Under the pieces are notes generated by a model, which ran no database searches, was not told the DNA's origin, and was given only the letters and a program-made list of their open reading frames with translations. The position numbers were made by a program, and so were the translations under genes. This document shows positions 19,401 through 57,932 of a DNA stretch of 64,000 nucleotides, in pieces. Every line of letters starts with the position of its first letter. Position 1 is the stretch's first letter. Source of the stretch: an uncultured virus (IMG/VR IMGVR_UViG_3300035689_000001) (taxonomy: Duplodnaviria; Heunggongvirae; Uroviricota; Caudoviricetes); IMG/VR virus record IMGVR_UViG_3300035689_000001, one strand, 5' to 3'.

Positions 19401-21832
19401 TTGGGGCGCTCACCGGATCAGCCAAAGCGTTTGGCGATCGCTTCCTCATGGCCGCCAGCATCGTGGGTCAGGGCTTCGGCAGCATGACAATGGGGGCGTT
19501 GGCGTTTGGGGTAACTTCCCTCCTGAGCCTCGGCCCCGTAATCCTGACGCTGGGGGGCATCGGGTTGGCGGCCCTGGCGGTCGCGACCAACTTCCTGGGG
19601 TTACGCACCATTGTGGTGGGGGCAATTCGGGCGATCGTCGGGATTGTCCAGATCCTTGCCACAACCCTGAAGGGGGTGGTTCAGATCACTGCGGGTCTCA
19701 CGAGAGTGCTGGCGGGTGCCCTCGCGATGCTGGGGGGCAACTTCGAGATGATCCATCACGGGATTGCCCAGGTGATCCAGGGGGTCAACACGATTTCGTT
19801 CGGGTTGGGTCAGGGTTTGCGAAATCTCATCGGGGGAGCCGTCCAGATGCTCCGGGGTGCATTCCAGGGATTGGGGCAGGTGGCACGCTTTACCCTGGGG
19901 GCAATCCAGCGGTCTGGAGCGTTGATCGCAACGACATTCCGGCAGATCATTCAGTTGACCAAAGGGGTTGGCAATGCTCTCCTGAATGCCCTGACGCAGC
20001 CCCAGAAAGCTTGGAACCGATTTGTAGGGACACTCCAGCAAGCCAAAAATGTCATCAGCAGGATCGCACAGTCCCCCCGGATTGCTGCCGATACTGTTGG
20101 GCTGGGGGCCAAAGGTAAGGCCCCCAGAATCCCGGAGAGCTACCAGATGGCTGAGTTCGATGATCGGCTCCGCAGTATCCCGTTTGTGGGGAATTATCTG
20201 GCGAATCAACAGGCCAACAACCCCGAACGTTTCAATGCACTGTCGGATGCGTTCGCCGGACTGACCGGGGTTTTGTCGGCACTATCCCCGGCGCTCGCGG
20301 CCCCATTGATGCTGTTCAGCGGATTGCTCGATAGCGTCGTGATGCTGGCGACCTCAATCCCGATCCTTAAACCGATGATCCTTGGGTTTGCCGCCACCCT
20401 CAAGGGTATGGGGACTGCCGCCGGGTTCGCCGCCACCATGAACACGGCCCTGACGACTGCTCAAACTTTCTTGACGGGTGCCCTGACGATCGGGATGGGG
20501 GCCGCTAAAGCCTTCTGGGCTGCTATCAGCGGCCCACTCCTCCCGGTTGTCGTGGCGATCGGCCTGATTGTCGCGGGAGTCTGGGCGTTACTCCAGGCGT
20601 TCAATGTATTCGGCAGGATCGGCCAGCTCATCGGCGGAATCGTCCAGTCATTCCGGGAAGCTTGGGGCATTATTGACCGGGCATTCCGAGACGCGTTTGG
20701 CGGCATTATGATCGCGCTTAATCAACTCGGTGATGCGATCGCGTCACCGTTTGAACCGCTGCTCCAGCTATTTGGCGCATCGGGCGGCGCTGGCCTCGCG
20801 GGCCTAATCAGCGGGACATTCCGGATAGCCCTTAACCCGATCCTCCTGGTAGCCCAAGGGATTGGGTTGGTGGTGCGGCTAATCGGTGCCGTTGTCGCCG
20901 GTGTGATCCAGGCGGGCGCATACATCACCCGGAAGCTGTTGTCACCGGTGGCGATCGCGCTCGAATGGATTATCGGTGCATTCCGGGACACCTTCGGGTT
21001 CATTGGGGAAACCCTCATGGAGGTAGGGAACTCCCTGGCGGAACCATTCGAACCGCTCCTCAATATGTTTGGAACCAGCGGCGCGGGCGGGCTGGTGGAT
21101 CTGCTGGGCCGTGGAATTTCGATGCTCCTATCCCCCCTGGAGATCCTGGGGTTTGCGGTCTCGATGGTGGTGCGGCTCTTTGGAGTCGTCCTGGTGGGGG
21201 CAATCCGGCTGGTCGGGACAGTCCTGAAGCCAATCATCTCCGTTATCCTGACGCCATTCCGGGTGATCGCAACCGTAATCCAGGGGGTTGTATGGCTGCT
21301 CCAGCAGATCCCAGCCCTCATGAGCGTGATTGCGAACGGCCTCTTGAGTGTTGTGCCCGAACCACTCCGCTGGTTGGTTGAATCCGCTCAAAAGATCACA
21401 GGGAATGGTCCCGCCGCTACGGGACCGACACCCCAGCGGTTTAGCACAGGTGGTCTCGTCACCGGGCCGTCCGGTGGCGACGTTATCCCCGCGCTCCTAT
21501 CAAACCGGGAATTCGTCGTTAACCAGAACGCAACCCGCCAGAACCTCGGGTTCCTTGAGGCGATTAATGCAGGGGTCCCGGCAGAGAAAGCCCTGGGCCT
21601 CATGCAGATCGCACCTCCCCCAATTGTCCGGCCTTCCGCCCAGGCGATCGCAGCCCCCGCCGATGCAACTCAACCCATTAGCGTTCAGGTCAACCTGACG
21701 TTCACGGGCAACATCATGGTGTCGGGCAACTCCGGGGAGGAAGTCGCATCTGAAATGATGCAACATCTCGAACCAAAGCTACAGATCGCCATCAGGGAAG
21801 CACTCCGCGATATGGTTGAACGGATGCGCTGA
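10457..21832 (+). CDS. Giant phage tail tape-measure protein (TP901-type core)
   Basis: DFNDQMAQVKAVS...AKELGASTRFSASEAASGFVLLAQAG...LNLASAG...IGESLKYAG...GLKGEMAGSAL core; long Ala/Gly/Leu amphipathic body; C-terminal FSTGGLVTGPSGGDVIPALLSNREFVVN motif. Confidence 0.92.
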   Translation: MLVLAESERYGLFASFRFDAGTQDFAAMNRVVAGLRGIEEAARTTEQSLQSARLGQEVRRQMRSAAGSTATLERPLKTLRQEFRALRAESRNIDFGELGDTRQFKAATQQVHQYVDALESLGNQIEHNTSLEREFAAVVKRQQRIAQERIDMAEQQRKAAVAAQRLAGAQAVQQIGQAVAAPLGAMGRDSIKILSDFNDQMAQVKAVSDMTARELETVRNRAKELGASTRFSASEAASGFVLLAQAGYEVEDQLRAIDGTLNLASAGNLDLARATEITVSTLGQFQLEADKASHAANVLAMAAAMGQLDVSDIGESLKYAGVSAKRAGLSLEQTASMLALLSEGGLKGEMAGSALGQMLDGLVAPASTGAAALANLGVQTTDATGKLLPYEKILGRTIEALSKVSDESERASIQNKIFGVVGGRAAGILTPRYERIAKATAEIGKSADAGVGAAIKQSRIMEDTLGGSFRNFSSAMEGLKISLVEPLEPIIRAIIDTGSAVASFFAGLPGPIRGVISVGMGLTFVLAGLSAAIATVGIAAFGMQQAAATSSVGLLALRSSAIPLTGFFQTAMGAFSASGLAGLRRFAADLTLLPGPLGQVMVLIRGVGMAIATTPFGMAIAGFAALLALAEVLTPGFDLLGTTITLLVAPFRILGGLASGVLQGFGAAIDEISGQRLSPVAQEFAEFAKGLIDQIDSLEMSANSLGQSIGKAIAKGLAPLFTVQAAISRAIFSIWRGTITAITHAFDPLLRFARWVGNMLVSSLAENSPGPTAQIRQRWDETVQHVQDVMGQLVGTAQQVGQAVWQAFSWVAEGVARLFREVFGHLLVSRLVKQTDVLGVRIHNRVFGLLNDILTLPVELGSPATMFFDGLLARLTVVEEVLVAIAPAMRIALTGIIPVTLQSQIVDLNNSLLNYIRSLGGVEGVVMRSVGSFDLLLKVASFLFKAMARYPGLMAGLRQGLTVLGRFAGLAGLILSLADSLRTLSFLAQGLQRVLANMGVPSGWLDPVITGLNQTIQAVQNARQAFVGFARSILYGDWGSAAQQFSSAWTDSIALVQRMLGSPLLADLQVFSPGSMKSVLDDQKTWINSLQADVSLAIANPIVLLAAGIKAGKSLGKAITTGLVKQIDGVAKKFVSDFSTKLNATSGAALSVALLSLFFAPAGIPRLIAGFAPALVVALTNSGVLQKVQAWIVKGFGGLLERVDQAFGRQEWLHRLGEAFGLLDVIAKGTGTVIDTLAKSMSVRLGAAIAIVSPTVQSLINSLKEIYQIGGVPAVLQNLQVITRPLALALQQIASSIQQMGTALAGLAATSPLFRQLMASVGTAANLLMRIPLVEQLGAFAVSMGLGRRLMGMGQSAVSTAQQGGKVAINGMQQVIQLMLWIGQGVYQIAEPGGTSLKKVPSLLSRILGVASKILNPLPALVGLSGKATDAGGIPRITPVDILSQFLPEFLIPATEKAIAGTKVRKILAARQPGFEEFDPFKQRELVGRYVERLSNPLGLINTPLFGPVVMASIELVGGSLLGLIATIGLAAGALYVFKPELAKPLAGFFQVLAKGVVGLAFVLVQLGHSSRDAADSIDVLGLKLKAPGWAIATSKALNAMIRAVGAVAVAFTQVVDFALGIVPTLIRSTLLLVPIAFIGITKLMLQAIQGVLRRVRDDTKRLGDAIVAGVRQGDWSQLGSILKEAFMNALNVTLIPIARLVKYIAWDLIISPIASAVWWGLTTVGNAIGSVLLHPIRTINFLVNAIKAIGVAVASIRLVGLLQAFTRVSTVVYEFESAVGTTGVAIAAIATVASVALDPIIALVMGAVVAIGVLVQSYRDNFSVLTAVINGLQWAISSLQERMATLVQVFATPIKPLDWLFSPIANFLSGAGDKFVQWFPTILAAFVGLQVARKGLVGGFVSAFSIIAKAILSVVSAISQAITGMIRLGGKTREFSQTLEGEVMIEQARRVGRRAGQRFGLFQSNEPQAIQAERDQQFLEKSAIVRFRKSVQQTLKKTGGSLESISEEVLQQLAAKSRLDTSGVPGVVPLRELAARDSGQLEEIRDLYQQNIDNLKTADMRAQTVTLVSDKVEASNVVSITRGTTRKLSTPEDVSSLRFGAAELRALANMPGGERLRSGAGLSQEASRLETTLGEAAKRLEDIPLSVLKNLAQAVGVYQPRTSRDEDYRFLNTYKDQLDKQGLPGVQKQLLMLQILARTDQIPTPQELTKGIVSAEEALKAIHGALEHLYRAANVKGEGQADAFNQMAIDTLRGQLPFLTNQDVANVISLLDKNPNPDRIMMALQQVLDTQVDLFLQDSPIFTPVQEAAQKMEQVIQTTATEAIAQMPKGGLWAGLGKRLKVAVHDFMDSDRVRSFIENRQEQKQQRQIAAMTEQRRMRVAAIQRNSGASNQLDFLRRIGAIQDPTTQILEQRQRPVPSAPSSLPPAPPPPREYPMLPDPWEETEAERFFKGLARFTRSLRRQIPEVSEQTVEFFRTINRDGERSLERVNVVPLYRRMLMGAAGGARQALNQAATLFDRRAGIKPPEILQKPSGESPRIAGLLPAAREPVAPSQPGGNIQNPFKEIERGIWMFGTFYSTDKIKSAWKRTSDVIQNGIWPRLVNSAKQVGRKILSYIAENSPGPTAQIRQRYHETADSVVADMHHMEAAAARTGQKIKHSLVGGVGRAGVAIFGALSATGFATQSIASSLSTLGILDESTSDALFKFTELFSIVGAVGSLAAPLFGAVAATLGALIPIITTVGGAIATFLIGPIGLASGAIIGSLLLINEATKRLFGIDFIAPVVGRVMMMANAIRQPLDWAANWIEARWQQFRDRFAPILAPIVEPALEVAQQLINALNHNPTEVIPLAWEEAVQRIIGWISQLPGIGEWAAKQLNKVMQPGGVLSRWGATVKRWFSDLKQSPDGAVIAPTKKELPPLPPPPKVTAAEQWGDMMTALQRSGDPSQVLTPGLDQATYGFQFLLKSARQFGEESGAALKRLDFGALTGSAKAFGDRFLMAASIVGQGFGSMTMGALAFGVTSLLSLGPVILTLGGIGLAALAVATNFLGLRTIVVGAIRAIVGIVQILATTLKGVVQITAGLTRVLAGALAMLGGNFEMIHHGIAQVIQGVNTISFGLGQGLRNLIGGAVQMLRGAFQGLGQVARFTLGAIQRSGALIATTFRQIIQLTKGVGNALLNALTQPQKAWNRFVGTLQQAKNVISRIAQSPRIAADTVGLGAKGKAPRIPESYQMAEFDDRLRSIPFVGNYLANQQANNPERFNALSDAFAGLTGVLSALSPALAAPLMLFSGLLDSVVMLATSIPILKPMILGFAATLKGMGTAAGFAATMNTALTTAQTFLTGALTIGMGAAKAFWAAISGPLLPVVVAIGLIVAGVWALLQAFNVFGRIGQLIGGIVQSFREAWGIIDRAFRDAFGGIMIALNQLGDAIASPFEPLLQLFGASGGAGLAGLISGTFRIALNPILLVAQGIGLVVRLIGAVVAGVIQAGAYITRKLLSPVAIALEWIIGAFRDTFGFIGETLMEVGNSLAEPFEPLLNMFGTSGAGGLVDLLGRGISMLLSPLEILGFAVSMVVRLFGVVLVGAIRLVGTVLKPIISVILTPFRVIATVIQGVVWLLQQIPALMSVIANGLLSVVPEPLRWLVESAQKITGNGPAATGPTPQRFSTGGLVTGPSGGDVIPALLSNREFVVNQNATRQNLGFLEAINAGVPAEKALGLMQIAPPPIVRPSAQAIAAPADATQPISVQVNLTFTGNIMVSGNSGEEVASEMMQHLEPKLQIAIREALRDMVERMR

Positions 21833-28316: not shown

Positions 28317-29153
28317 TTACGGTCGCGAAGGGATGCGATCGCTATGTGATTTCGAGAGAAGTGGTGATTGACCAAGGCATCGATATGCCTCCACCTCTTG
28401 CTCGGCTTCATTCATCGCCCGATCCCGGATCTCCTCTGGTGAAACCACCAGAACTTTCCCTCGGTATCTTCCGAGATCCTGGAGCAGCCAGAAAACGCTC
28501 CAACACTTTCGGATGACGATGGTCTTGCCGTCCACCTGTTCCAGCTCGTCGCCCTCATGGGGTGTGTAGCGGAATCCAGGCTGGATCTGAAGCTGAACTG
28601 GGATTGAGTCCAGTCCATGAACCCGCCATTCCCCAGTAGAGCGGGAAACTGCCGTGATGTGATCGAGCCGGATGGTTCGGTTGTGCCGCAGAGCCTCTGG
28701 CTCACCTGAGTCGATCTCCCCTTCTATCCATACCCGAAGCTGCGGACGGCCACCCGAAGGCGTCCAGAAATCTCCGTAGTGGCAGTTGTAAACATTGCCG
28801 CTGGCGCTGGTGACGGCAAACGACGATCGCTCCTGAATGAGCTTGTAGAGATCGCTCACTACGTCCCTGGCTACCACTTTCGACCAGAAAGTGGAATCTA
28901 CCCCGGTTGAGAGGCGAATCCACTCAGATAGCTGACTTGCCGCCTGAAGGTTGTTCAGGCTCAACAAGCACGTCACCCCCTCCAATAAGGCACTTGTCTG
29001 CTCTGCGGTTGGGGCAAACGTATTGATTTCGCCATTAGCGATCATCTGGCAGAACTTACTTGGATCCAGTCCGTATGACTGGGCGATCGCAGCAAATCGC
29101 TGAAACTGATCCTCCCCGTCGGCAAAGCTGATTTGTTTTCCAATCCGCGCCAT
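28317..29153 (-). CDS. WYL-domain transcriptional regulator (cyanobacterial Sll7009-like)
   Basis: N-terminal RHH-like segment; LRVW...EALRHNRTIRLDHI WYL core; FWLLQDLGRY..KVLVVSPEEIRDR WCX tail. Confidence 0.8.
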   Translation of the reverse strand: MARIGKQISFADGEDQFQRFAAIAQSYGLDPSKFCQMIANGEINTFAPTAEQTSALLEGVTCLLSLNNLQAASQLSEWIRLSTGVDSTFWSKVVARDVVSDLYKLIQERSSFAVTSASGNVYNCHYGDFWTPSGGRPQLRVWIEGEIDSGEPEALRHNRTIRLDHITAVSRSTGEWRVHGLDSIPVQLQIQPGFRYTPHEGDELEQVDGKTIVIRKCWSVFWLLQDLGRYRGKVLVVSPEEIRDRAMNEAEQEVEAYRCLGQSPLLSKSHSDRIPSRP

Positions 29154-31604: not shown

Positions 31605-32144
31605 TCAATATGGAATTTCCGTCTCTTCCCAGTCGCCGCATTCATCACCAGCGGGACCGTAAGGGTGCATCCCGCAGACCAACAGGATGTCGTTGTGGGT
31701 ATGGCCATGATGGTGTTTGCATCCAAGGCATATCGGGTTGGTGGCAGCAACTGGTTTATCCACCATGAAGGTCGTGATCGTCCAGTTGTCTTCCTGTTCC
31801 TTAACGGCAGATCCTGCCCTTGGGATTACCCGGAGGGTGACTTGATCCAGGTGCTTCCTTTCCCCAAGTTTGTACCCTTCGACCTGGCCCCAGATTGTGC
31901 GATCGCCATCCCGCAATATCCTGCCTGGTTGGATGCTCCAGTTTTGACCCTGGTGAAATCTGATCCGAATGAGCATTGCTCCCGACATCGCATTGACTTC
32001 ATGCCAATCCAGTACAAAGTTTGCTGACCACAGAACCGGGCCATCCCGATCGAACTCCATAATCAATCCAGGGGACCAATTCGTGTAACTGTAGGGTCCT
32101 GTCGGGCCTTGCAAATTTATTGAGGCAAATCTCCAGCATTGCAT
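31605..32144 (-). CDS. Hypothetical protein with C-terminal Cys/His motif (DUF6464-like)
   Basis: CLGCKHHHG....LLVCGMHPYGP..DECGDWE. Confidence 0.6.
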   Translation of the reverse strand: MQCWRFASINLQGPTGPYSYTNWSPGLIMEFDRDGPVLWSANFVLDWHEVNAMSGAMLIRIRFHQGQNWSIQPGRILRDGDRTIWGQVEGYKLGERKHLDQVTLRVIPRAGSAVKEQEDNWTITTFMVDKPVAATNPICLGCKHHHGHTHNDILLVCGMHPYGPAGDECGDWEETEIPY

Positions 32145-32366
32145 AAGGGCGATCGCTCATGTGCCAATTCAGTTTAGTTGACGAATCGGCACAATTAACC
32201 AATCTCGATTTGTCAACTAATAAAAAAGCCACCCCCGTAGGAGCGGCGAACGGTGTTCCCAGTTGATCTGCCCGCTGGGGCTTTCCCAAAGGATGCCCAG
32301 TGAATGAAGGGGCGATCAATCAGGTCGTGAAATCTGTGGCGGGACGATGGAATTTCCCAGAATTTA

Positions 32367-33251
32367 TTAAAGGCGACGAGCGATCGCCGCTTCATGAACC
32401 GATTCAGGGGTAGAGCTTGCCACGTTCGAGATTCGCAACAGCTCGTTTACCATCGCGATCGCCTCAGTTTTGGTTACCCGAGGCGACAGTTTCAACCCAT
32501 CCCGGAGATACCACTCCTTTGGAGAGAGAAGCGATAGGCCAGCATCAGTGACCCGATCGCGCCATCCATCCTCTGGTAGCACTTCGTCAATACCGTGTCC
32601 CTCGTACAACAGCTTACTGGAATCAGGCATCCAGTCCCTCATTGTTTCGGAATTATAGCGCAGGCCCTTGATGCAAACCTCCTGATACCCCAACTCACAC
32701 AGTCGTGGCAGAAACGACAAATCTGAAACACCGGAGATGTAGGGATGGCACATAGGTAGGCATCTTACGCTGAACTCCTGTGCCAACTCCAGAGTGCGGA
32801 GATGCACTCGACTAGGAACACGCTCGACTGGCGGTTTGTTGCCAGTGATGGTGACAACCAGGAACAGGTTTGGGATTTGAGCCAGTTCCTGCATCAGATC
32901 TCGGTTGATGCTCCACTTGGTCACGACTGTCAGTAATTTGGCCTCTAAGTGAGTACTGTGAACCCATTCCCAAAAGAACGGGAGTAACTGTGGCATCATG
33001 CCATCTGTTACGGCGGTCCAACCAGCAAAGTCGCCTCGAAACAAACGCCAGGGAGTTGCTTTGAAACGCTGTTGAGTCTCCTGATCTTCCGTAATCCAGG
33101 GCGGTACATTCATGAAGGTGCAAGCTTTGTTGATGCCCAACAGGCCGCGTGACCAGGCAGCGGTACGGTTGGCGTCCAGTTCGGTGACGTGGCAGTACCG
33201 ACAGGCAACCGGACAGGCGGGCTTGCCTACTTCAAACCGAAATTCGCCCAT
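32367..33251 (-). CDS. Radical SAM protein (spore-photoproduct-lyase-like clan)
   Basis: N-terminal CPVACRYC (CxxxCxYC); VVTKW, VVTITG, HPYISGVSD. Confidence 0.85.
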   Translation of the reverse strand: MGEFRFEVGKPACPVACRYCHVTELDANRTAAWSRGLLGINKACTFMNVPPWITEDQETQQRFKATPWRLFRGDFAGWTAVTDGMMPQLLPFFWEWVHSTHLEAKLLTVVTKWSINRDLMQELAQIPNLFLVVTITGNKPPVERVPSRVHLRTLELAQEFSVRCLPMCHPYISGVSDLSFLPRLCELGYQEVCIKGLRYNSETMRDWMPDSSKLLYEGHGIDEVLPEDGWRDRVTDAGLSLLSPKEWYLRDGLKLSPRVTKTEAIAMVNELLRISNVASSTPESVHEAAIARRL

Positions 33252-33804
33252 GCCGTGCCAGCTCCTTCAGTATTGCTAAGGTTACATCCTGCTGGGGTTG
33301 TTCTGCGTCAACCTCAACAAGGTGATTCAATTCCTGCCAGTTCGCCCTGTAGCCAATGTTCTGCAATAGCTCAGGCAGTCGCGATCGCTCCATTTCCATC
33401 CGGGACTTCCATTTCTCCAGGGAGTCGCCTGCGCGATCGCGGTCTACGACACGGCGCTGACTCTCTTGCTCTGAAATCTTCAGATGCACAAAAAAATTGA
33501 GAAAGCCGTCCCATGAAATGGAGTCTTTCTGAATTCGATCACGGGGGAAGCCATCCACGATGCATCCCCCTTGCTTGGGGACAGAATCGTAAAATAGCGC
33601 GATTGCTACGTCCGGTGACAAAGGCTCCCAGTTGGATCTTTTATGTACTTCACGAATGCAATCTGCCAGTTGCCCCTCTCCATTTTTGGCAAGTTCACGG
33701 GCGCGATCGCCCAGACTTATGTGGGGAACATTCAGTATCTTGCTGAGTGCTTCCCCTTGAGTCCCCTTGCCTGCGCCAGGTAATCCCAGTAAAAAGATTC
33801 TCAT
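33232..33804 (-). CDS. adk: Adenylate/nucleoside monophosphate kinase
   Basis: IFLLGLPGAGKGTQ P-loop, VPHISLGD..R, IVDGFPR. Confidence 0.9.
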   Translation of the reverse strand: MRIFLLGLPGAGKGTQGEALSKILNVPHISLGDRARELAKNGEGQLADCIREVHKRSNWEPLSPDVAIALFYDSVPKQGGCIVDGFPRDRIQKDSISWDGFLNFFVHLKISEQESQRRVVDRDRAGDSLEKWKSRMEMERSRLPELLQNIGYRANWQELNHLVEVDAEQPQQDVTLAILKELARHGRISV

Positions 33805-34040
33805 GATTGAGCCAACCTAACGTTGCTGTACTGTGGGTCTCCGGTTACTTCCAGCCATAACCAGTCTGGTAGAACCGGAATGTCCGCCAGCTTAATTTCA
33901 GCGATCACCAGTCCATCGTGATTACCCTCAAACTTATCGACAGTCCACAGTTGATCGCCTACTTTGATCTCGTGCCGGACTTTGCTGAGTCGATACATTG
34001 CTGTCTGTTGAAGGTCGATCGCATCGGCAATCGGAATCTC

Positions 34041-35480
34041 TTGACTTCTCCCCCGCATGAATGACGGGGGATTCCCAAGTGATGCTACGCAACGGGCTGA
34101 AGCCGCGTTGCTTCGCTTTTCCCTTGAGCTGTCACCCACAACTTAATGCGGGTGGGGGCAGTCAAAGACCCCCTACCAACTCCGCTCAGACTAAATCCAA
34201 GCATCGTCGCTACTTTACGCAGAATGTTGGCAGCGCCATTACAATCCGCGTTGATATACCAATTCTGAGCAGTCCTGAACAACCCCCGCTTCGTTCGCTT
34301 CCCAGATGACTTCCAGCTATCAGGTTTTTCACCGAATGTCGGCAAAAAGTCATCATCCACAAACGACGCTTGAGAGGTATACGACTCCTCAGTTTCAACA
34401 AACTCTATCCCATGCTGCTCTGCTAACTGAGCAATGCGCTCTTTCAGCTTTGCAGTTGGGATCTGCACAAACTTCTGATTGGTCTTCTTGCCCAGGTTGG
34501 AGCCGTCCTTTTGCCGCTGGTTCCAGCCAAATACAATTCGTCCAATCCGGTTTTTGATGCAATGGTCAACGACAATCCGCGCTGCCTTGTTCACCGCGTC
34601 GCGCATCTGACGATTGCGTTTCTCGGTGAGTTGAGCAAGTCGTTTCGACCAAAAGTCCTGTGACTTGCCCTCTTTCAGCGAGGCAATCTGTTTGTTGTGC
34701 CAGCGGTTCAGCGATTTGAGGTGCAGTCCATCCACAATGAAGCTGGTTCCCACATTGCTGACGCAGGTGAGCCAATTATTCAGTCCCGAATCAATCCCCA
34801 GCACCCGCATCGGGTCTACATCAACTTGGACGGGTTTCAGGCGATAGACAAACTCAGTGTAGAAACACCCGTTGCGCGGCAGAATCCGTAGTTCTTTAAT
34901 GTCCTCAAATTTGAGGTTAGAGGGCATTGGAACGGTGAACGAATCAATCTGGAACCACGTCTTCACCAACTGCCCCAGCGGAACCCGGATCATCCCATCA
35001 ATCAGTTTCAGCGCTTGTTTGGGATAGCTGACTACTGCCAACCCTCCCTTCTTCCGGTAGTCGGGCAATTTGGGCTTCTCTGCCAACTCTCCGTCCCGCC
35101 ACAGCTTTGACAATGCTCGATACGACTTGAATGACTCGTAGACTGAGCGAAGAACTTGTTGTGCAGCTTGGGAATAGAGAACTTGGAAGTGCTTACTGGA
35201 TTTGTACTCAGCATCCAGGGTGAATTTGCCAATCCACCGCCCGGTCTTGAAATGCAGTTGACGGGCATAGTAGATGCCCTGATTAGTCAGCTTGTTCGCC
35301 TCAGAGCAGATAAACTCCACCACCGCCCTGAGTTCGTTGTTGGGGTTAAGTAAAACTTGCTGGCATCCAAACATAAGACAATTGTACCAACTATTTCATC
35401 TCACTGGGGGCTAAAGCCCCTTGAGTTGACTGTATCCCCTCGCTGAAGCGGAGGGGCTTTAGTCTGCCCACATCGCCTCA
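34041..35480 (-). mobile_element. IS200/IS605-family tnpB-only (IS1341-like) element
   Basis: Minus strand: TTAC target at 35481..35484, left-end hairpin, right-end hairpin ending AGAAGTCAA; no target-site duplication. Confidence 0.9.
34085..35374 (-). CDS. tnpB: RNA-guided endonuclease TnpB
   Basis: LGIDSGLNN (RuvC I), IVFGWN...EESYTS (shifted RuvC II), INADCNGAANI (RuvC III). Confidence 0.92.
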   Translation of the reverse strand: MFGCQQVLLNPNNELRAVVEFICSEANKLTNQGIYYARQLHFKTGRWIGKFTLDAEYKSSKHFQVLYSQAAQQVLRSVYESFKSYRALSKLWRDGELAEKPKLPDYRKKGGLAVVSYPKQALKLIDGMIRVPLGQLVKTWFQIDSFTVPMPSNLKFEDIKELRILPRNGCFYTEFVYRLKPVQVDVDPMRVLGIDSGLNNWLTCVSNVGTSFIVDGLHLKSLNRWHNKQIASLKEGKSQDFWSKRLAQLTEKRNRQMRDAVNKAARIVVDHCIKNRIGRIVFGWNQRQKDGSNLGKKTNQKFVQIPTAKLKERIAQLAEQHGIEFVETEESYTSQASFVDDDFLPTFGEKPDSWKSSGKRTKRGLFRTAQNWYINADCNGAANILRKVATMLGFSLSGVGRGSLTAPTRIKLWVTAQGKSEATRLQPVA

Positions 35481-35682
35481 GTAATCAAAGACCTGGCGAA
35501 CGCCATTAACCCGATTACTAAGCACCGAAAGATACCCAATCTCTGGAGTCAGGGAACTAACGCGAACCCGGATTTCGGGTTCGATCGATAGGTACGCCTG
35601 AGTGATATTTCTAGTTCGCTCCGGGATAGCAAAAAGCAACCAGTAATCGCTCTTGACTAAAAACTTTCGCTCAATATCCTGT

Positions 35683-36906
35683 TTAGGCATTGATGTGCTC
35701 CAGTTGCAAAATGCGACTCGGGCTCATCCCGACAGTTACTTGAAACTCTGGCGGCAATACATCCTCAAACATTGAAAGGAAGCAGTAGGAGCATTTCAGG
35801 CACTTTTTGGCGGGAATGTACTCACTCCACACCATCCAAGAGTTCACGCCGTACAACACTCCTTCGCCATTGCCATCAGGCATTGAAAAGCGGGGATGGA
35901 GCCGCACGTTGCTATTTTCACCAGGGGGAATTGTGGGATCTGTTGCCAGCATTCCACCTGTCAGGAAGCGCGCTAACGACATCTCGCCCCAGGACGGAAC
36001 ACTGCCGTCCCATGCCCGAACGTTAATGTAGGGTGCTCCCATGTCGGGAGTCTTGGGGCAGTTGGTGCAACATAGGGTGCATTGCGATCGCACCTCCACG
36101 CCGCACCGCTGATACCGTTCCGAGGCGGTATGCACTTCAACCTGAAAGCCGAGATAGCGAAGCAATTCTACACTATCGGCGACCGGCTGGATGAACTGAG
36201 CGGCACCTGCACAGGAGTCTTTCAGGGAACAGCGATCGCACCCAACGAATTTAGGCGCAACGTAGTACGGGTTGAGGCTGCGGGGCTTGCCTGACAATGC
36301 CGCTACTGCACATTGGGTTCGAGTCCAGTAGGGAATACCCAGATCTTCCGCAAGTTGCACCATTTGCTCTGCTGTTATCTGCGGCGTCAACTTTAGGGTT
36401 CGCATCCAGTTTTGTGCATCTGGAGCGGGAATATTTTGCAACCCCGCATCGTTAACGACGCGATTGTCACCACGGAATCCAGAAGAAATGATCGCATGGC
36501 AACCGGCGTTCACCGAGCGTTCAAACATTTCCCGAATTAGCTCAGGAGAATCGTTGACTGTGTGGATAATGGGGCGGATGTAAGCAATCGCTTTTGCGCC
36601 AGCCTCACGCGCAACCGCTAGTGTGCGGTTGCGTGATTCGGTTGGGGCTGGCTCCATTTCCTTCGGCAGATGGGAGATAGAGGCAAATACAAAGAGATTG
36701 AGGTTTGTAGACCAATACTGGAGGCGATCGCGCCACCATGGGGAAGACAGGTCTCCCTTCGTGATGAGCGCAACGGCTCCAGTGTGTCCGTCATCTACCA
36801 AAGCATTAAGCTTCTGCTCGGTCGATTGCCTGAGAATTGACGGGTCGGCCAGGTTGTTGATACTGACGGGTAAATCCCGCAGCAATTGGAGCCACCGATC
36901 TTTCAT
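35683..36906 (-). CDS. Radical-SAM-barrel-like protein lacking the N-terminal CxxxCxxC, with Cys-rich C-terminal half
   Basis: LITKG, FASISHL..EMEP, YIRPIIHTVND parallel motifs in the 32367 protein; Cys clusters CDRC..SC, CTLCCTNC, CLKCSYC. Confidence 0.6.
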   Translation of the reverse strand: MKDRWLQLLRDLPVSINNLADPSILRQSTEQKLNALVDDGHTGAVALITKGDLSSPWWRDRLQYWSTNLNLFVFASISHLPKEMEPAPTESRNRTLAVAREAGAKAIAYIRPIIHTVNDSPELIREMFERSVNAGCHAIISSGFRGDNRVVNDAGLQNIPAPDAQNWMRTLKLTPQITAEQMVQLAEDLGIPYWTRTQCAVAALSGKPRSLNPYYVAPKFVGCDRCSLKDSCAGAAQFIQPVADSVELLRYLGFQVEVHTASERYQRCGVEVRSQCTLCCTNCPKTPDMGAPYINVRAWDGSVPSWGEMSLARFLTGGMLATDPTIPPGENSNVRLHPRFSMPDGNGEGVLYGVNSWMVWSEYIPAKKCLKCSYCFLSMFEDVLPPEFQVTVGMSPSRILQLEHINA

Positions 36907-36908
36907 GG

Positions 36909-37370
36909 TCAATGTACCTTCTTTTTGGGATATACCAAGCAATGGGGATGGTCGAACGCGAGAAACGGGTTATGTAAACTTTCAACCAAAAGCCCGTTTT
37001 GCCCCGATCGAAATGTGTGTAGAACCCCTCTCGGCATCCAGACGCGATCGCCTGGATGCAGCGGATGTATCTGAAGGATGTTACCTGAGAAAAATTCAAA
37101 AGTGCCGCCCCCCTGAATCACGGTGATGCGACGATCTGATTGGGGGTGGCAGTGGTGAGCGTTATCCTCACTGGAGTCTGCGGGGAACTTCACTATCAAG
37201 ACACCCAGGTGTCCTGATACACCCTGGATGATCTGTGCCCGCATGTAAGTTTCGTAGGGAGTCCAGGGAGTCTGCTGAGAAATTCCCACGCTGGCGGATT
37301 GGTTGTGCTCCAAGAATCTGCCGTCACGCCAGCGATCGCGACATTCCTGCCGAAATTTCAATCTATCCAT
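36909..37370 (-). CDS. Cupin-domain protein
   Basis: AHHCHPQSDRRITVIQGGG and LHPGDRVWMPRGVLHTF cupin motifs 1 and 2. Confidence 0.85.
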   Translation of the reverse strand: MDRLKFRQECRDRWRDGRFLEHNQSASVGISQQTPWTPYETYMRAQIIQGVSGHLGVLIVKFPADSSEDNAHHCHPQSDRRITVIQGGGTFEFFSGNILQIHPLHPGDRVWMPRGVLHTFRSGQNGLLVESLHNPFLAFDHPHCLVYPKKKVH

Positions 37371-37668
37371 CCAGTTCAAGCCTAAAACTAAAGTATTCGG
37401 AGCTGTCTTCAATGCCAGGAGGTAGACTGCACACCAACCAGTCGCCTCCTTCGAGGTAGAGGGTGCCGTTTTTGATAGCCTCCTGCACCATGCTCAGAGG
37501 GAACAGACACGCATTCTCCAGTTGCGCCTTGTTACCCTGCACCTGCCCTCCTGGAGAAAGCTGGTGGACAGTGGCTACCCCGGTGTAGTTTGGGAAGCGA
37601 TTAGCTATGCAGGCCACTACAGCGGTCTGATCACCAACAGCCTGGATTTCAGCAGGAGAGATTTTCAT
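37363..37668 (-). CDS. Hypothetical protein
   Basis: 101 aa, overlaps both neighbours. Confidence 0.6.
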   Translation of the reverse strand: MKISPAEIQAVGDQTAVVACIANRFPNYTGVATVHQLSPGGQVQGNKAQLENACLFPLSMVQEAIKNGTLYLEGGDWLVCSLPPGIEDSSEYFSFRLELDG

Positions 37669-37835
37669 ACGTCTTTCAGTTGCTTATTGAGGGTGTATGC
37701 AGTACCGAAGCCCAGGGCGGCTCCCATGATTCCGCCTGCCAATTTGTTTCCAGTAGATTCACCAAAGGCAAAACCCGCTACAGTGGCGGCGATCGCTACC
37801 ACAGCACACAAGCCAAGCAGGACATTTTTGTTCAT
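37665..37835 (-). CDS. Small two-helix Gly-rich membrane protein (56 aa, not in ORF track)
   Basis: MNKNVLLGLCAVVAIAATVAGFAFGESTGNKLAGGIMGAALGFGTAYTLNKQLKDV; ATGA overlap with the next gene. Confidence 0.65.
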   Translation of the reverse strand: MNKNVLLGLCAVVAIAATVAGFAFGESTGNKLAGGIMGAALGFGTAYTLNKQLKDV

Positions 37836-37907
37836 GAGTGAGCGCTTTTGTGTTGCTGACGATCGCGCACTCGCCAGTATTGAGTAGCCTCTGCGCGGAG
37901 GTCCAGG

Positions 37908-38246
37908 CTATTTGATTACCTGACCCAATTCATATGCACTGGAATGCGTGATGCAAACAACGTAGCTGCCTCCATCGATCTTTGGGTCAAAGCAGGCAAC
38001 AGCGGGAACAAGGTGCGCGAAAGCGTGTGCGATCGTCATAGCCACTGGCAGGGACGCTGCTCCGTTGACCCGAAGTACATCCAGGCCCACTGCGATAACT
38101 TCATCCACCACGACCTTGCACCCTGCCGCCGCATCGACCACCTTCTCGTCATTGTCGGAAGGCGTACCAAAAGAGATGTTCAGAATCGAGCCGTCAAAGG
38201 AGACGTTGTAAGTACCGGCCACGTGTTTTGTTTCTCCGTTGTTCAC
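37908..38246 (-). CDS. csx3: Csx3/Crn3-family cyclic-oligoadenylate ring nuclease homolog
   Basis: LRVNGAASLPVAMTIAHAFAHLVPAVACFDPKI...YVVCITHSSAYELGQVI matches the cyanobacterial Csx3 pattern. Confidence 0.8.
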   Translation of the reverse strand: MNNGETKHVAGTYNVSFDGSILNISFGTPSDNDEKVVDAAAGCKVVVDEVIAVGLDVLRVNGAASLPVAMTIAHAFAHLVPAVACFDPKIDGGSYVVCITHSSAYELGQVIK

Positions 38247-38406
38247 GATGTTTTCAATTTAGCTCAGTTATGGCTTGATTGCAAGGATCAAGCCATAGAA
38301 AAAGGCTATGGGAAAAATCTTATGTAAGACAAATTCTTATAGCTTGGTTGTGGAAATGTAGCTGCGTTAGGGCTAATCTTTAGTTTTAGGCGAGTTTAGA
38401 AGAGGC

Positions 38407-38856
38407 ATGATCCAGTTCAATGTATTGGAAGGGCAGGAGTTTACCTGGCTCTTTGTTGAAGCTCGCAGAGGAAAGCCTGATCGGGCTGATCTGCTACGGC
38501 TAGACTTGCCTCAGGTAACGGGCAGCAAGGGGTTAGTGATTTCCTCTGGCAAGCTCCCAGCCTGGGCAGGAGTGGGAACCGCCATAAGCCATTATCGAAA
38601 TCGAACACCATGGCAGGCGATTTACGATCCCGTTGAGAAAGGGGCGATTGTCATTTTTTCGATCTCGGATAATCCATTGATTGGCGACATTCTGTCACTG
38701 AAGTTGCCATGTCTGGCTTGTGCTGAAAAAGGTATAGAAACTCTTTTGAAGGCGGGTGCAATGTACCCTTACTGCCAAAAGAACGGCCACCAGAATCATG
38801 CTCCAGAGAGGCAGAGTTACACCCCGAAAAACTCTCCGTTGAGTAAAGATGGATGA
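38407..38856 (+). CDS. csx3: Second, divergent Csx3-like protein with C-terminal Cys/His extension
   Basis: LDLPQV...KGLVISSGKLPAWA....SHY...PWQAIYDP...GAIVIFS....LIGDIL parallels the Csx3 GVVISGRGPIW/YDPR pattern; tail CLAC..YPYC...GH. Confidence 0.7.
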   Translation: MIQFNVLEGQEFTWLFVEARRGKPDRADLLRLDLPQVTGSKGLVISSGKLPAWAGVGTAISHYRNRTPWQAIYDPVEKGAIVIFSISDNPLIGDILSLKLPCLACAEKGIETLLKAGAMYPYCQKNGHQNHAPERQSYTPKNSPLSKDG

Positions 38857-39191
38857 CACGGCAAGCCTTTACGCCACCAGAACCAACCAACGGGTTTGCC
38901 GTGGCATCAATCCAGATGGGTCCCCCTGCTGCAAGGTGCTGGCTCCCTAGGCGAAGGGAGACTATTGTGTGCGGCACCGACACCAGGATCCGGCCAGGAA
39001 GCAGCGGGTGAAAGAATCTCGCTAAACCGCCATAACCCTGAAGCATTTTTGCAGAGTTGGCCTGCAAAAATGCAATCAAACACTTTGCAGGAATAGGTTG
39101 CAGAACATGACTGAAACGAAAATGAGAGCCAGGTACGGTGGGAACTGCCGTATCTGTGGACAGCGATTCCCAGAAGGAACCGACATCTTCT

Positions 39192-39905
39192 TTAAAAAAT
39201 TGCCAGGATGGAGTCCCGCAGTTGGGCGAGCCGTCCCTTCAGGGCGATGTCGTTTGGATCGTTATCAGACAGGCTCGCCGTTAACTCCTCATATTTCTGG
39301 CGGATTTCATTGGCTGAAGCTTTCTGTGGGTCAAGCCCGAAGATCTGCCAGATGCGGCCATACAGGAAGATGTTCAGGCCGTTGATGCAACCCCAACCAG
39401 TCTGTTTTTCTTCACCCGGAATGATCCCAAGCTTGTTACGGTATGCCTGTTCAGTGAAGAGGCTTGGGGACAAGGTTCTGTAAGGGGAATGTTTTAGGAA
39501 TGCTTTCCAGAGGTCTTTGTTAAACTCAGGGGTGCCAGGAGTACCATTGGCGAACCTGGTGCTGATTTCATCCCTTAATTGAGAGTACTGTTGACCTCTG
39601 GTTGCTTTTTTAAGCGTGATCGACGATAGCTCCAGGGTATTGGCTCTCAATAGTGCCGCCAGGGTCACGATCTTCCATGGGTTATTTTTAGGGAAAGTTG
39701 CATCAAAGGTCTCAATCAGCCCCGCGTGCTGAATCCTTTTCGTGATAATCAGACATCTTTTTTCCCAGCGCAGTTCTGGGTAGTCGCTTCCGTTCAGATG
39801 CTTTCTCCAGAAGCCTGCCTGCTCCAACTTGTCCCAAGCTTCTGTGTTGGCCGTGATGAGGCTCTCGTACCCCTCATCCCCGAAGCAGCGAATACTAATG
39901 GTCAT
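39192..39905 (-). CDS. Hypothetical protein, tandem paralog 2
   Basis: Shares long motifs with 39916..40680 (GFWRKH.NG.DYP, LF.EQAYR...GIIPGEE..TGWG.INGLNIFLY..IWQIFG, EIRQKYEELTA). Confidence 0.8.
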   Translation of the reverse strand: MTISIRCFGDEGYESLITANTEAWDKLEQAGFWRKHLNGSDYPELRWEKRCLIITKRIQHAGLIETFDATFPKNNPWKIVTLAALLRANTLELSSITLKKATRGQQYSQLRDEISTRFANGTPGTPEFNKDLWKAFLKHSPYRTLSPSLFTEQAYRNKLGIIPGEEKQTGWGCINGLNIFLYGRIWQIFGLDPQKASANEIRQKYEELTASLSDNDPNDIALKGRLAQLRDSILAIF

Positions 39906-39915
39906 GGTGCTACTC

Positions 39916-40680
39916 CTAGTTGTCGCTGGTTGTGTTTGCTGCTTCCAGGAGTTCGTCCATCTCGCTGAAGATTGCGATCGCCGAGTCCCGAAGTTGTGTG
40001 AGGCGTCCCTTCAGGGCGATATCGGCTGGGTTGTTGTCGCCCAGACCCGCTGTCAGCTCTTCGTATTTCTGGCGGATTTCTTCGTCAGCGTTGATCGTGG
40101 GTTCGGTGCCAAAGATCTGCCAGATTTGGTCATACAGGAAGATGTTCAGGCCATTGATGTGGCCCCAACCAGTCCGGTTTTCTTCGCCCGGAATGATCCC
40201 GATATTGGCTCGGTATGCCTGCTCAATGAAAAGCGTCTCAATTAGTTCCCTGTAGGGTGCGTTCTCTTGGAATGCGATCCAGTTCTTCTTGGTGAATCCA
40301 GACTCGCCAGGGAGTCCGCCAGCGATCGAATTCATCAGCTCTCCCTGCAGTTGCGAGAACTGTTCCCAGTCGGTAGTCCTTTCGAGCTTCATCGTAATGA
40401 GGGCAATGCTGTCCGATTCCAACAGTCTCGCGAGAGTCGTGATTTTCCAGTAGTCATTCTGGGGGAATGCTGCATCGAAGGTTTCGATCAGCCCTTCGTG
40501 CTGGATCTTTTTAGTGATGAGGAGATCCCCAAACCCCCATGTGTACCCTGGGTAATCGTCGCCGTTGAAATGCTTTCTCCAGAATCCCTGATCGTACAGG
40601 CGAGTCAACTGCTCTGCGCCGATCCGGATCATCCCGGTATGGCTTCCTTCAGAGAAGCATGAAAAATCAAGTGTTGCCAT
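39916..40680 (-). CDS. Hypothetical protein, tandem paralog 1
   Basis: See paralog 2; AT-rich promoter-like region at 40681..40790. Confidence 0.8.
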   Translation of the reverse strand: MATLDFSCFSEGSHTGMIRIGAEQLTRLYDQGFWRKHFNGDDYPGYTWGFGDLLITKKIQHEGLIETFDAAFPQNDYWKITTLARLLESDSIALITMKLERTTDWEQFSQLQGELMNSIAGGLPGESGFTKKNWIAFQENAPYRELIETLFIEQAYRANIGIIPGEENRTGWGHINGLNIFLYDQIWQIFGTEPTINADEEIRQKYEELTAGLGDNNPADIALKGRLTQLRDSAIAIFSEMDELLEAANTTSDN

Positions 40681-40866: not shown

Positions 40867-41307
40867 TTATGGGGCAATGGATTCTGCCATTTGGCGTAGT
40901 ACTTCTACTGGGGTTCCGGTGCTGGACAGCTGCTCAATCTCGTACTCGGTTGGGCGATCGCCATCCCGCAGAGCCTGTAATCGTTTTATCTGGATCTTGG
41001 CGGCCCCGGCTAATTCATCCCAGTGCTGAATCACCAGCTCCGAGATTGAGGCTGGGGGCTGGAATACGGTTCCACTTGCCCTATGGCGGCATTCCTTAAA
41101 GATCTGAATACCCACTTCTAGTTCGTTCTGAACTCGAAGGAGCCTCATAAATTCTGCGTCCCACATCGCAATGGCTCTCTCGTAACCACTGCCCTCGGAG
41201 CGATCGCCTGAAATCCAATTCGAGATGGTAGAGCGAGGTACCCCCAAGAGGGTAGCGAGTTGCTGATGAGTAGCGCCCCAACGTTCACAGAATTCCCTGG
41301 CTTTCAC
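40867..41307 (-). CDS. XRE-like HTH protein
   Basis: THQQLATLLGVPRSTISNWISG. Confidence 0.75.
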   Translation of the reverse strand: MKAREFCERWGATHQQLATLLGVPRSTISNWISGDRSEGSGYERAIAMWDAEFMRLLRVQNELEVGIQIFKECRHRASGTVFQPPASISELVIQHWDELAGAAKIQIKRLQALRDGDRPTEYEIEQLSSTGTPVEVLRQMAESIAP

Positions 41308-57756: not shown

Positions 57757-57932
57757 TAACGGTCAAAATTATCAACGCGATCGCAGATAAACATTCTGCT
57801 GCTGTGTTCCAAGAATTAGTTCAACAGGGATGTTCCGTTGATGATGCCCTGACTGACCTGGCGGATGAAATAAAGGAAGCGATCGCCACAGTTTTGGAAG
57901 AATATTTCCTGGAGGAATTTGATGAAGATTGA
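57753..57932 (+). CDS. Very acidic 59-aa protein (not in ORF track)
   Basis: TTG start overlapping the previous stop, GGAGGT RBS; 15 D/E versus 3 K. Confidence 0.6.
   Translation: MITVKIINAIADKHSAAVFQELVQQGCSVDDALTDLADEIKEAIATVLEEYFLEEFDED

Follow-up and report, generated by a model that had tools for sequence, protein, structure and literature searches.

We report that the operon at positions 32367–38246 of the window, the 64,000-nt stretch of uncultured viral DNA analysed here (IMG/VR record IMGVR_UViG_3300035689_000001), is built around a conserved two-protein core: a canonical radical S-adenosylmethionine (SAM) enzyme of 294 residues and a cysteine-rich, motif-less paralogue of 407 residues. 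In the window this core is accompanied by a nucleoside monophosphate (NMP) kinase, a cupin and Csx3-family proteins, and in most relatives by a SufS-like cysteine desulfurase. From sequence, we consider the chances about even that the cassette carries out a radical reaction on an adenine nucleotide, probably an insertion of sulfur, that serves to modify phage DNA or acts in conflict between genetic elements. An earlier note, made from the window sequence alone, had listed eight same-strand genes here (Csx3, a membrane peptide, a gene it did not recognise, cupin, rSAM-like, CYTH, adenylate kinase and radical SAM) and had proposed a pathway that makes a modified nucleotide or rewires adenine second messengers. 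All eight open reading frames (ORFs) were recovered on the minus strand, and the last seven do overlap or abut; the CYTH gene, counted there as one, is two fragments with a ninth ORF, encoding TnpB, between them. The features of the region are:

38407..38856, plus strand: csx3b, Csx3-family protein, 149 aa, divergent; outside the span above but belonging with the operon
37908..38246, minus strand: csx3a, Csx3-family protein, 112 aa, first operon gene, of the Csx3-AAA protein type
37665..37835, minus strand: 56-aa peptide, hydrophobic, glycine-zipper-like
37363..37668, minus strand: 101-aa protein, no family match
36909..37370, minus strand: cupin, 153 aa from ATG; the TTG ORF extends to 37412
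35683..36906, minus strand: Cys-rich radical SAM paralogue, 407 aa, with a partial-barrel core
35481..35690, minus strand: CYTH 5′ fragment, 70 codons, with an N-terminal DIERK motif
34041..35480, minus strand: TnpB insertion element, IS200/IS605-type, TnpB-only, 1,440 bp
34085..35374, minus strand: TnpB ORF, 429 aa, inside the insertion element
33801..34040, minus strand: CYTH 3′ fragment, 79 codons plus stop
33232..33804, minus strand: adenylate-kinase-family NMP kinase, 190 aa, PF00406
32367..33251, minus strand: canonical radical SAM enzyme, 294 aa, CX3CX2C at C13/C17/C20, distantly SPL/COG1533-like
32228..32247, minus strand: terminator-like hairpin and T-run, ~120 nt past the last gene

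The spacings that follow csx3a are, in order, 72, −4, −8, +2, −8, −4 and −20 nt, and from this pattern of overlaps and abutments we conclude that the minus-strand genes of 32367–38246 form one translationally coupled accessory operon. The hairpin past the last gene is suggestive by position only, as terminator-like sites in the region are not enriched over shuffles (7 versus 7.3). A promoter and terminator scan of the region gave counts not above those of shuffled sequence, and an Rfam scan of 31800–39200 gave no match at E ≤ 0.1.

The last gene of the operon encodes, by its homologues and its predicted fold, a partial (β/α)6 TIM barrel, an enzyme of the radical SAM superfamily. We found 167 homologues at E ≤ 1e-3, the best 120 of which are 48–75% identical to it (cyanobacterial homologues, P0002–P0007, at 73–75%), and the motif CX3CX2C (C13, C17 and C20), which binds the SAM-cleaving [4Fe-4S] cluster, is invariant in all 18 aligned members of the family. 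When its AlphaFold2 model (mean predicted local distance difference test score, pLDDT, 82.7) was compared with known folds in VIA-align, the top 31 rows were all radical SAM enzymes, the best being PFL-AE (Z 10.9, root-mean-square deviation 3.4 over 193 residues), with SkfB at 10.0 and LIAS and LipA at 9.9. No Pfam model was matched at E ≤ 0.1, PF04055 included, and about 10 of the 120 homologues listed carry a precomputed PF04055 assignment. The nearest Atlas clusters are 56–86% viral; three mostly viral clusters without a name head the list, and the first named one after them is 'SPL family radical SAM'. The enzyme did not match the curated NCBIfam SPL/COG1533 models (PA0069, Rv2578c), which only distant relatives reach, at E 1e-5 to 1e-13 and far under the cut-offs. 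For the 294-aa and 407-aa proteins alike, a sequence search of solved structures gave nothing meaningful and Foldseek against the PDB gave generic TIM-barrel or radical SAM matches only; Foldseek against the BFVD viral models gave no match at E ≤ 0.001, and in PADLOC neither protein matched at E ≤ 0.01, pVip included. The radical SAM identity given in the earlier note thus stands, and structure prediction, one of the checks it named, yielded radical SAM folds for both proteins.

Profile comparison identifies the 407-aa protein as a paralogue of the 294-aa enzyme, the two families aligning in hhalign with a probability of 96% (E 4.7e-9, residues 44–156 versus 106–209). Its homologues start at the residue equivalent to M13 of the TTG ORF. 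An alignment of 23 sequences (A2) shows that it has no cysteine before residue 199 and hence no N-terminal CX3CX2C; the position equivalent to the cysteine motif of its relatives is occupied by an invariant PVSINN.YGDP stretch, and it lacks about 60 residues at the N terminus, where the 294-aa family has the SAM-cluster loop. The same alignment contains 11 invariant cysteines (C199, C223, C226, C232, C268, C276, C280, C283, C369, C372 and C375) and a twelfth kept in 90%, which would be enough for two or three auxiliary iron–sulfur (Fe-S) clusters. The last three of the invariant cysteines make up a C-terminal CxxCxYC, by resemblance the canonical motif minus one residue, which could be a stand-in for the N-terminal motif; when this segment was moved to the front of alignment A2, the hhalign score and range were unchanged (73.2 versus 73.3). 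In VIA-align the AlphaFold2 model of the protein (pLDDT 88.6) has radical SAM enzymes at all of ranks 1–25 (best Z 11.7 over residues 11–197), and both radical SAM proteins of the operon match PFL-AE, NifB, LIAS/LipA, SkfB, SPL, BioB and viperin at Z 9–12, with none of these families clearly ahead. The 407-aa protein had no Pfam match at E ≤ 0.1 and scored 13.8 bits against NCBIfam Rv2578c (cut-off 430, E 0.022), and its distant phmmer relatives are canonical radical SAM proteins of the PA0069/Rv2578c kind (COG1533, 'SplB-like') with PF04055. The gene that the earlier note called rSAM-like therefore has the radical SAM fold and homology but not the canonical N-terminal motif. In L004 and L015/L017/L029 the Cys-rich gene was detected by tblastn, not as one table-11 ORF, and an alternative genetic code or frameshifts are possible there.

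We compared 52 related loci, of which 9 came from species-representative genomes (mostly metagenome-assembled genomes of the candidate phyla radiation, CPR/Patescibacteria), 8 from IMG/VR and 35 from metagenomes. Dereplication at 90% radical SAM identity gave 31 groups, in which neighbours were counted within 6 kb. The Cys-rich protein is directly adjacent to the radical SAM enzyme in 28 groups, the 3 misses being contigs under 1.8 kb, and the pair was adjacent in 17 of the 17 loci fetched first. A SufS-like class-V pyridoxal phosphate (PLP) enzyme is present in 20/31 groups (loci L008 and L023 are examples), an adenylate-kinase-like gene in 11/31, a 150-aa cupin in 6/31, a second small cupin-like ORF, between the partner and the kinase, in 6/31, a csx3a-type gene in 5/31, a Csx3-associated P-loop protein in 5/31 and csx3b in 2/31. 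We conclude that the gene order is not due to chance and that the core, which recurs across the 52 loci, is narrower than the earlier list: it consists of the canonical radical SAM enzyme and its motif-less paralogue, the other partners being optional. The working core of the window has four parts, namely the 294-aa enzyme, the 407-aa paralogue, the adenylate-kinase-family NMP kinase and the cupin. As to whether the gene set first listed is conserved, the pair, the kinase, the cupin and Csx3 do recur in uncultivated phages and CPR bacteria, but CYTH and the 56-aa peptide had tblastn matches in 0/52 loci and the 101-aa ORF had no relative among them. The modified-nucleotide pathway proposed in the note is thus partly supported, since the sequences point to a conserved nucleotide-chemistry module, but three lineage-specific genes were over-included; its list also missed the component most informative on chemistry, the SufS-like desulfurase, which most relatives have either alongside the Cys-rich partner or fused to it.

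The optional partners bear on substrate and chemistry. The kinase exceeds the PF00406 cut-off (5.7e-14, 52.9 bits versus 26.8) and scores 63 bits against the best NCBIfam adk models, whose cut-offs are 168–187. Residues G7, G12, K13, D84-G85, P87-R88, Q92, R118, R122, R135 and R142 are invariant in 11/11 cassette kinases, which keep the P-loop, DGxPR, four arginines and the glutamine of DGFPRxxxQ, presumably the residue that reads the adenine of AMP in E. coli Adk, and have an invariant W-x-P-L segment of their own. By these features it is an adenylate-kinase-family enzyme with an intact NMP-site signature and not a housekeeping-Adk equivalog, in keeping with its first assignment as an adenylate kinase. 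In two relatives (P0061 and P0068, ~487 aa) an adenylate kinase is fused to the radical SAM enzyme, which favours a nucleotide substrate, and a distant relative (P0211) is a MazG–radical SAM fusion. The SufS-like enzymes look like working desulfurases, because the PLP lysine (SxHK) and the RxGxxC cysteine are invariant in 11/11; they match the SspA and DndA models of PADLOC (1.8e-38 and 5.7e-37), and in P0132 (784 aa) and P0134 (845 aa) the SufS-like enzyme is fused to the Cys-rich partner. Within the window there is no desulfurase, and no other Dnd or Ssp component was matched among the window proteins scanned. The cupin (Cupin_2 1.1e-5, 25.5 bits, just under the 27.2 cut-off; Atlas structure rows with TM 0.63–0.69 to Cupin_2/AraC_binding clusters) lies directly upstream of the Cys-rich partner, as do its homologues (46–52% identity) in the 6 cupin groups. 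Cupin and SufS never occur together (SufS in 0/6 cupin groups, cupin in 0/20 SufS groups), and the window is of the cupin type, which suggests that the cupin takes the desulfurase's slot in the phage-type cassette.

In a sample of 401 genomes from the phylum to which locus L002 belongs, only 4 had the radical SAM gene, the centre genome of the sample (G001) counted. A tblastn search with the 294-aa enzyme gave no match in 50,697 GenBank phage records or in 72,556 PLSDB plasmids, and neither tblastn with the 407-aa partner nor blastn with the terminase region of the window gave a match in GenBank phages. Because of this rarity in genomes and the lack of matches in GenBank phages and plasmids, we conclude that the cassette is a sporadic, mobile accessory module; a housekeeping role in CPR bacteria was rejected on the same 4/401 count. 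Full-text literature searches, with supplements outside their scope, returned no description of the gene set. In several IMG/VR contigs the gene next downstream of the cassette encodes a 1,277-aa phage portal protein fused to an inorganic-pyrophosphatase-like (InPase) domain (L011:10985–14818).

The CYTH gene of the window copy is, as read from its sequence, knocked out by the TnpB insertion. Its frame meets a stop directly after codon 70 (...FDY) and resumes 1,440 bp on (EIP...). The insertion element, which is single-copy within the window, is preceded by the tetranucleotide TTAC within CYTH and has hairpin-rich ends and no TnpA; its TnpB reads in the direction of the operon and exceeds the cut-offs of NF040570 guided_TnpB (1.1e-50, 173.1 bits versus 100), PF01385 (3.3e-17, 63.2 bits versus 30.5) and PF07282 (27.9 versus 26.3). 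We compared the operon region with contigs of four lake-water metagenome runs (X2, X4, X5 and X6). The interrupted allele is present at full length in X2 and X4, and a contig of X6 holds an empty site with CYTH uninterrupted (34039 joined to 35482, 1,442 nt skipped, two letters between); this bridging contig differs from the window at 40 of 538 aligned bases (~92% identity). From the two alleles the insertion looks recent, and the uninterrupted one argues that the operon of this lineage truly includes CYTH. Run X5 has the insertion element alone, and copies with different flanks occur in X4, X5 and X6. Positions 36679–38246 are uncovered in X6 at ≥90% likeness, which says nothing on absence of the cupin or csx3a there. 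None of the runs listed is on record as RNA, which is neutral as to expression. With respect to family, the 3′ fragment matched the Nitrosomonas triphosphatase NeuTTM (2fbl/3typ) in phmmer at E 0.012 over residues 81–150 of 153, the C-terminal half, and PHROG 6660 at 1.7e-6; neither fragment matches any Pfam model at E ≤ 0.1, and the 5′ fragment alone matches no family. Its start, DIERKFLV, resembles the ExExK signature of CYTH enzymes. The CYTH call of the note has a weak NeuTTM match and a motif behind it, and there is no intact single gene here. The 3′ fragment has no relatives in the viral_contigs set, and the only longer relative found is a 186-aa chimeric ORF (P0239, 87% identity) with an N-terminal ABC-ATPase fragment, which suggests another rearrangement at CYTH in a related genome.

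Both Csx3 ORFs exceed the cut-off of PF09620, 21 bits (csx3a 2.8e-6, 27.5 bits; csx3b 1.7e-10, 41.1 bits), which upholds the original Csx3 call; the NCBIfam equivalog TIGR02579 was not reached (18.8 versus 55.4). csx3a also matches the PADLOC Csx3-AAA model (1.2e-13 over residues 12–112), and csx3b has a Cys/His-rich C-terminal tail. Aligned with A. fulgidus Csx3 (AfCsx3, 3wzg; E 1.9e-7, residues 3–97), csx3b keeps H57 and D69, has H60→N and H80→I, and has the R71 position beside a one-residue gap. The catalytic or 'absolutely conserved' residues of that enzyme are H57, H60, D69, R71 and H80, and H60A is inactive and H80A strongly impaired (PMC7371418). Given these mutant data, the two replacements make csx3b more likely a binder than a nuclease. 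csx3a had no sequence match to any solved Csx3; by spacing alone its H79, D88, K90 and H102 could correspond to H60, D69, R71 and H80, although MAFFT places them differently, and it may be an active oligoadenylate nuclease. Homologues of csx3a adjoin the cassette in L006, L007, L009, L014/L018 and L027, and csx3b occupies the same divergent position in L011–L014 and L018. In CPR-type loci Csx3 recurs beside the cassette together with a 189-aa P-loop protein (GPPRSGKS ... DIGG), the two being encoded separately or fused as AAA–Csx3 (L007:6699–7827, L027, L043, L006:11113–12817 and L003:13109–14341). Csx3-AAA is scarcely mentioned in the literature searched, and its function appears unstudied. 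Counting the AAA–Csx3 fusion in L003, a Csx3-family gene lies near the cassette in 7/31 groups and is absent from 24/31. In the phylum sample PF09620 occurs in 12 of 401 genomes, and none of the 4 cassette-positive genomes is among those 12. The presence of Csx3 near the cassette, in several arrangements (upstream, downstream and divergent), is far above what chance would give at a genome frequency of 3%. The two Csx3 genes are a recurrent add-on to the cassette. The suggestion that the operon rewires adenine second messengers has Csx3 as its sole footing, and csx3b is without two residues that are essential or important in AfCsx3 (PMC7371418).

Taking the gene structure, homology, conservation, fusions and insertion as observed, we infer the substrate, the sulfur chemistry and the biological role as follows. 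The 294-aa enzyme would generate a 5′-deoxyadenosyl radical and abstract hydrogen from a nucleotide, of which an adenine (deoxy)nucleoside monophosphate is the likeliest, and the Cys-rich paralogue would supply sulfur or electrons from its own clusters. In most relatives the SufS-like desulfurase would recharge these clusters; in the window lineage a host desulfurase might do so, or the cupin in some replacement role. The kinase would then re-phosphorylate the altered NMP into the pool of nucleoside or deoxynucleoside triphosphates (NTPs or dNTPs). A CYTH triphosphatase would, in this lineage, either supply or remove triphosphates, much as NTPases act when phages replace a base. The product would be put to use in modifying phage DNA or in conflict with other elements. 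We hold with little confidence a more elaborate version, a self-contained pathway to a sulfur-bearing adenine (deoxy)nucleotide not known before, in which the radical subunit and a sacrificial multi-cluster subunit acting in trans, recharged by SufS, thiolate (d)AMP, the kinase returns the product and CYTH or MazG biases the pool, such that phages would replace or decorate adenine and CPR bacteria would employ the same compound in conflicts, as a metabolite that Csx3-type proteins sense or clear.

Several observations weigh against the main reading, adenine-nucleotide modification for phage DNA modification or conflict. In four CPR groups the trio of cassette genes has housekeeping neighbours, namely YebC in L002 as well as in L004 and its group, and RuvC in L002; within a cell this position is easier to reconcile with a soluble metabolite than with DNA modification across the genome. 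Descent from the SPL family would likewise agree with an enzyme that acts on DNA and not on nucleotides in free form. The fold matches are generic, with the sulfur-inserting LipA, LIAS and BioB within 1–2 Z of unrelated radical SAM enzymes. The window and the other cupin-type loci are without SufS, so transfer of sulfur in cis cannot be a requirement. The case for the CYTH identity is modest (E 0.012 for one fragment, plus a motif), and the TnpB insertion, possibly polar on the kinase and radical SAM genes, may have left this copy of the operon non-functional.

It is possible, though on the unlikely side, that one transcript joins two unrelated functions, with Csx3 a stand-alone anti-type-III-CRISPR protein (ring nuclease or sponge) and the cassette unrelated to oligoadenylate signalling. 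The many groups that carry the cassette without Csx3 (24/31), the separation of cassette and PF09620 in the phylum sample (0/4 among 12) and the 72-nt gap between csx3a and the coupled genes would fit such a division, and viral ring nucleases are a known anti-CRISPR strategy. Set against it is the recurrence of Csx3 or Csx3-AAA beside the cassette in several arrangements, far above the 3% genome frequency. Both window Csx3 ORFs pass the Cas_csx3 cut-off, which allies them with the Crn3/Csx3 ring nuclease of A. fulgidus (AF1864; PMC7371418); unlike Crn3, they are phage-borne, and the window ORFs scanned include no type III locus, its CRISPR genes being type IV.

A viperin-like defence carried on a prophage or island seems to us unlikely. 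Here the pair would turn a kinase-made nucleotide into an antiviral, for example chain-terminating, analogue, and Csx3 or Csx3-AAA would be a sensor or regulator linked to cyclic oligoadenylates. The coupling of radical SAM enzyme and NMP kinase and the sporadic, conflict-type distribution (4/401 genomes) are shared with viperin and pVip (CMPK2, pVip–kinase fusions): the kinase–radical SAM fusions mirror the pVip–kinase fusions, and the kinase weakly matches the PADLOC viperin–kinase fusion model (1.2e-4). Csx3 or Csx3-AAA within 6 kb in 7/31 groups, compared with PF09620 in 12/401 genomes, would suit a defence system, as would the position of the operon between the packaging genes and an Xre-like repressor (40867–41307) on an element that also has type IV CRISPR-Cas. 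However, the 294-aa enzyme matches no PADLOC model, pVip included, and viperin ranks only 10th by fold, a generic likeness (Z 8.9) tied with many others. Viperin chemistry requires neither a desulfurase nor a multi-cluster partner, so that the obligate second Fe-S subunit and the desulfurase of the cassette have no counterpart there, and the cassette occurs in lytic-looking viral contigs beside portal and head genes (L011/L012) as well.

We regard as quite unlikely a post-replicative modification made within DNA or RNA, in which an SPL-like enzyme would flip out and alter a base in the manner of M6 gp53, the kinase activate a group on the polymer like 5-hmdU DNA kinase, and the desulfurase provide a sulfur mark, functionally like Dnd/Ssp. 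In its favour, the closest relatives with a name belong to SPL/COG1533 families, the desulfurase has matches to the SspA and DndA models, and DNA-modification systems typically show such a sporadic spread across cells and phages. The closest published analogue that we found is the gp51–gp54 cluster of Pseudomonas phage M6, in which an SPL-like radical SAM enzyme that acts on DNA (gp53), a PLP enzyme and a P-loop kinase make a hypermodified thymidine on DNA (PMC8989533); the cassette, with the PLP enzyme of its relatives, has the same three kinds of protein. The cassette departs from M6 in that its kinase belongs to the adenylate-kinase family, keeps the NMP-site signature intact and is not 5-HMUDK-type, its PLP enzyme is a SufS-type desulfurase and not a decarboxylase, and it has the additional Cys-rich paralogue; no aGPT-Pplase or dUMP hydroxymethylase was seen, and tblastn of either radical SAM protein found nothing in the 50,697 GenBank phages. 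Among the neighbours scanned there was also no DndC/D/E-like or restriction partner. As for Dnd/Ssp phosphorothioation itself, the desulfurase of the relatives matches DndA/SspA, whereas the window has neither a desulfurase nor any other Dnd/Ssp match among the proteins scanned.

Modification of an adenine nucleotide with sulfur from a partner subunit finds parallels in other known systems. The M6 cluster is a precedent for this reading as well, and the weak match of the kinase to the PADLOC viperin–kinase fusion model also speaks for it. LipA/LIAS, BioB and MiaB combine a radical SAM centre with one or more auxiliary clusters that can donate sulfur and need resupply, and LipA/LIAS are among the top fold matches; the archaeal LipS1/LipS2 are a two-protein sulfur-inserting radical SAM system. 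The cassette differs from LipA, BioB and MiaB in that its auxiliary clusters would lie on a separate paralogous subunit, it has no sequence-level membership in these families, and its context (kinase, Csx3, phages) points to nucleotides rather than to lipoyl or biotin cofactors. The SPL/COG1533 proteins (PA0069, Rv2578c; NCBIfam 'radical SAM mobile pair' A/B), its nearest named relatives, embody a similar idea of a mobile radical SAM pair, but the window proteins reach none of these models and one member of the pair is without the canonical motif. Phage base replacement proceeds through the dCTPase, dCMP hydroxymethylase and dNMP kinase of T4 and through MazZ, PurZ and DatZ of S-2L. The cassette would share the logic of an NTP hydrolase (CYTH, or the MazG fusion in P0211), a base-modifying enzyme and an NMP kinase; in contrast to T4 and S-2L, its candidate modifying enzymes are radical SAM proteins, and its CYTH is lineage-specific and broken in the window.

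That the window copy is a decaying remnant, in which the insertion sequence inactivates CYTH, is polar on the two downstream genes and leaves nothing made, is in our view very unlikely. The 1,440-bp insertion with its stop directly after CYTH codon 70 and the chimeric ORF that is the only longer relative of the 3′ fragment would agree with decay, but the other ORFs are all intact and under family-level conservation, the insertion looks recent (full-length allele in X2 and X4, empty site in a ~92% identical relative), and TnpB is co-directional with the operon, so that read-through is possible. Maturation of a metallocluster or cofactor instead of a nucleotide pathway, in the manner of a NifB split in two and working with NifS, is extremely improbable: NifB is the top Foldseek match of the 294-aa enzyme (6.2e-4) and second for the 407-aa partner (Z 11.6), and a desulfurase with a multi-cluster scaffold-like protein would fit, but many other radical SAM enzymes reach equal Z-scores, the kinase–radical SAM fusion is left unexplained, and no target metalloenzyme recurs among the neighbours scanned.

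The two remaining small ORFs of the operon gave little to build on. The N terminus of the 56-aa peptide is hydrophobic, with Kyte–Doolittle 15-residue means up to 2.3, and all its Pfam matches are sub-threshold; the 101-aa protein has no Pfam, NCBIfam, PHROG or PADLOC match and no relative in the viral_contigs set.

The surroundings of the operon are phage-like, with an M23 lysin, a 3,791-aa tape-measure protein, small and large terminase subunits, an Xre/CI-like repressor and HNH endonucleases, and the best explanation of the carrier is a temperate phage-like (cyanophage-like) element of a cyanobacterium, probably a filamentous one. The tape-measure protein is a single, unusually long ORF (10457–21832) with a PhageMin_Tail domain at residues 220–419. 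Between csx3b and the Xre-like repressor sit tandem proteins of 237 and 254 residues (39192–39905 and 39916–40680, minus strand) that are alike over long stretches, match no family and have no homologues in the related loci; in L011–L014 a different tandem pair of 214-aa proteins occupies the same place. Two WYL/WCX-domain proteins are encoded at 28317–29153 (minus strand) and 52802–53854 (plus strand), the second of them in fusion with a GIY-YIG nuclease domain; the gene after it encodes a DHH/DHHA1 phosphoesterase (53860–55152; PHROG 4771, 1.7e-58). Type IV CRISPR-Cas effector genes lie at 57133–62230 (Cas11-like, Csf2/Cas7, an unassigned 300-aa ORF, Csf3/Cas5, Csf1/Cas8-like and Cas6), and 3′ of them are two 26-nt palindromic repeat-like copies (62243–62268 and 62599–62624), with no obvious array before the end of the window. 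A fragment of a Mutator-family transposase (PF00872, model residues 115–188 only) is found at 228–635.

Couplings of a radical SAM enzyme with a nucleotide kinase have already given antiviral nucleotides, in the viperins, and hypermodified phage DNA bases. The architecture described here, in which a catalytic subunit is accompanied by a paralogue with several clusters but no motif, and in most relatives also by a cysteine desulfurase of its own, is not described in the papers searched, and it is common to uncultivated phages and ultra-small CPR bacteria. The natural CYTH knockout in the window and the uninterrupted allele in its relative offer a ready comparison, and the recurrent link to Csx3 and Csx3-AAA provides a handle on the role of these proteins outside type III CRISPR. 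If sulfur is indeed inserted into a nucleotide, the cassette would represent a new nucleobase or nucleotide chemistry and a new two-subunit split of a sulfur-donating radical SAM enzyme, and its product would possibly be a new anti-restriction or antiviral molecule.

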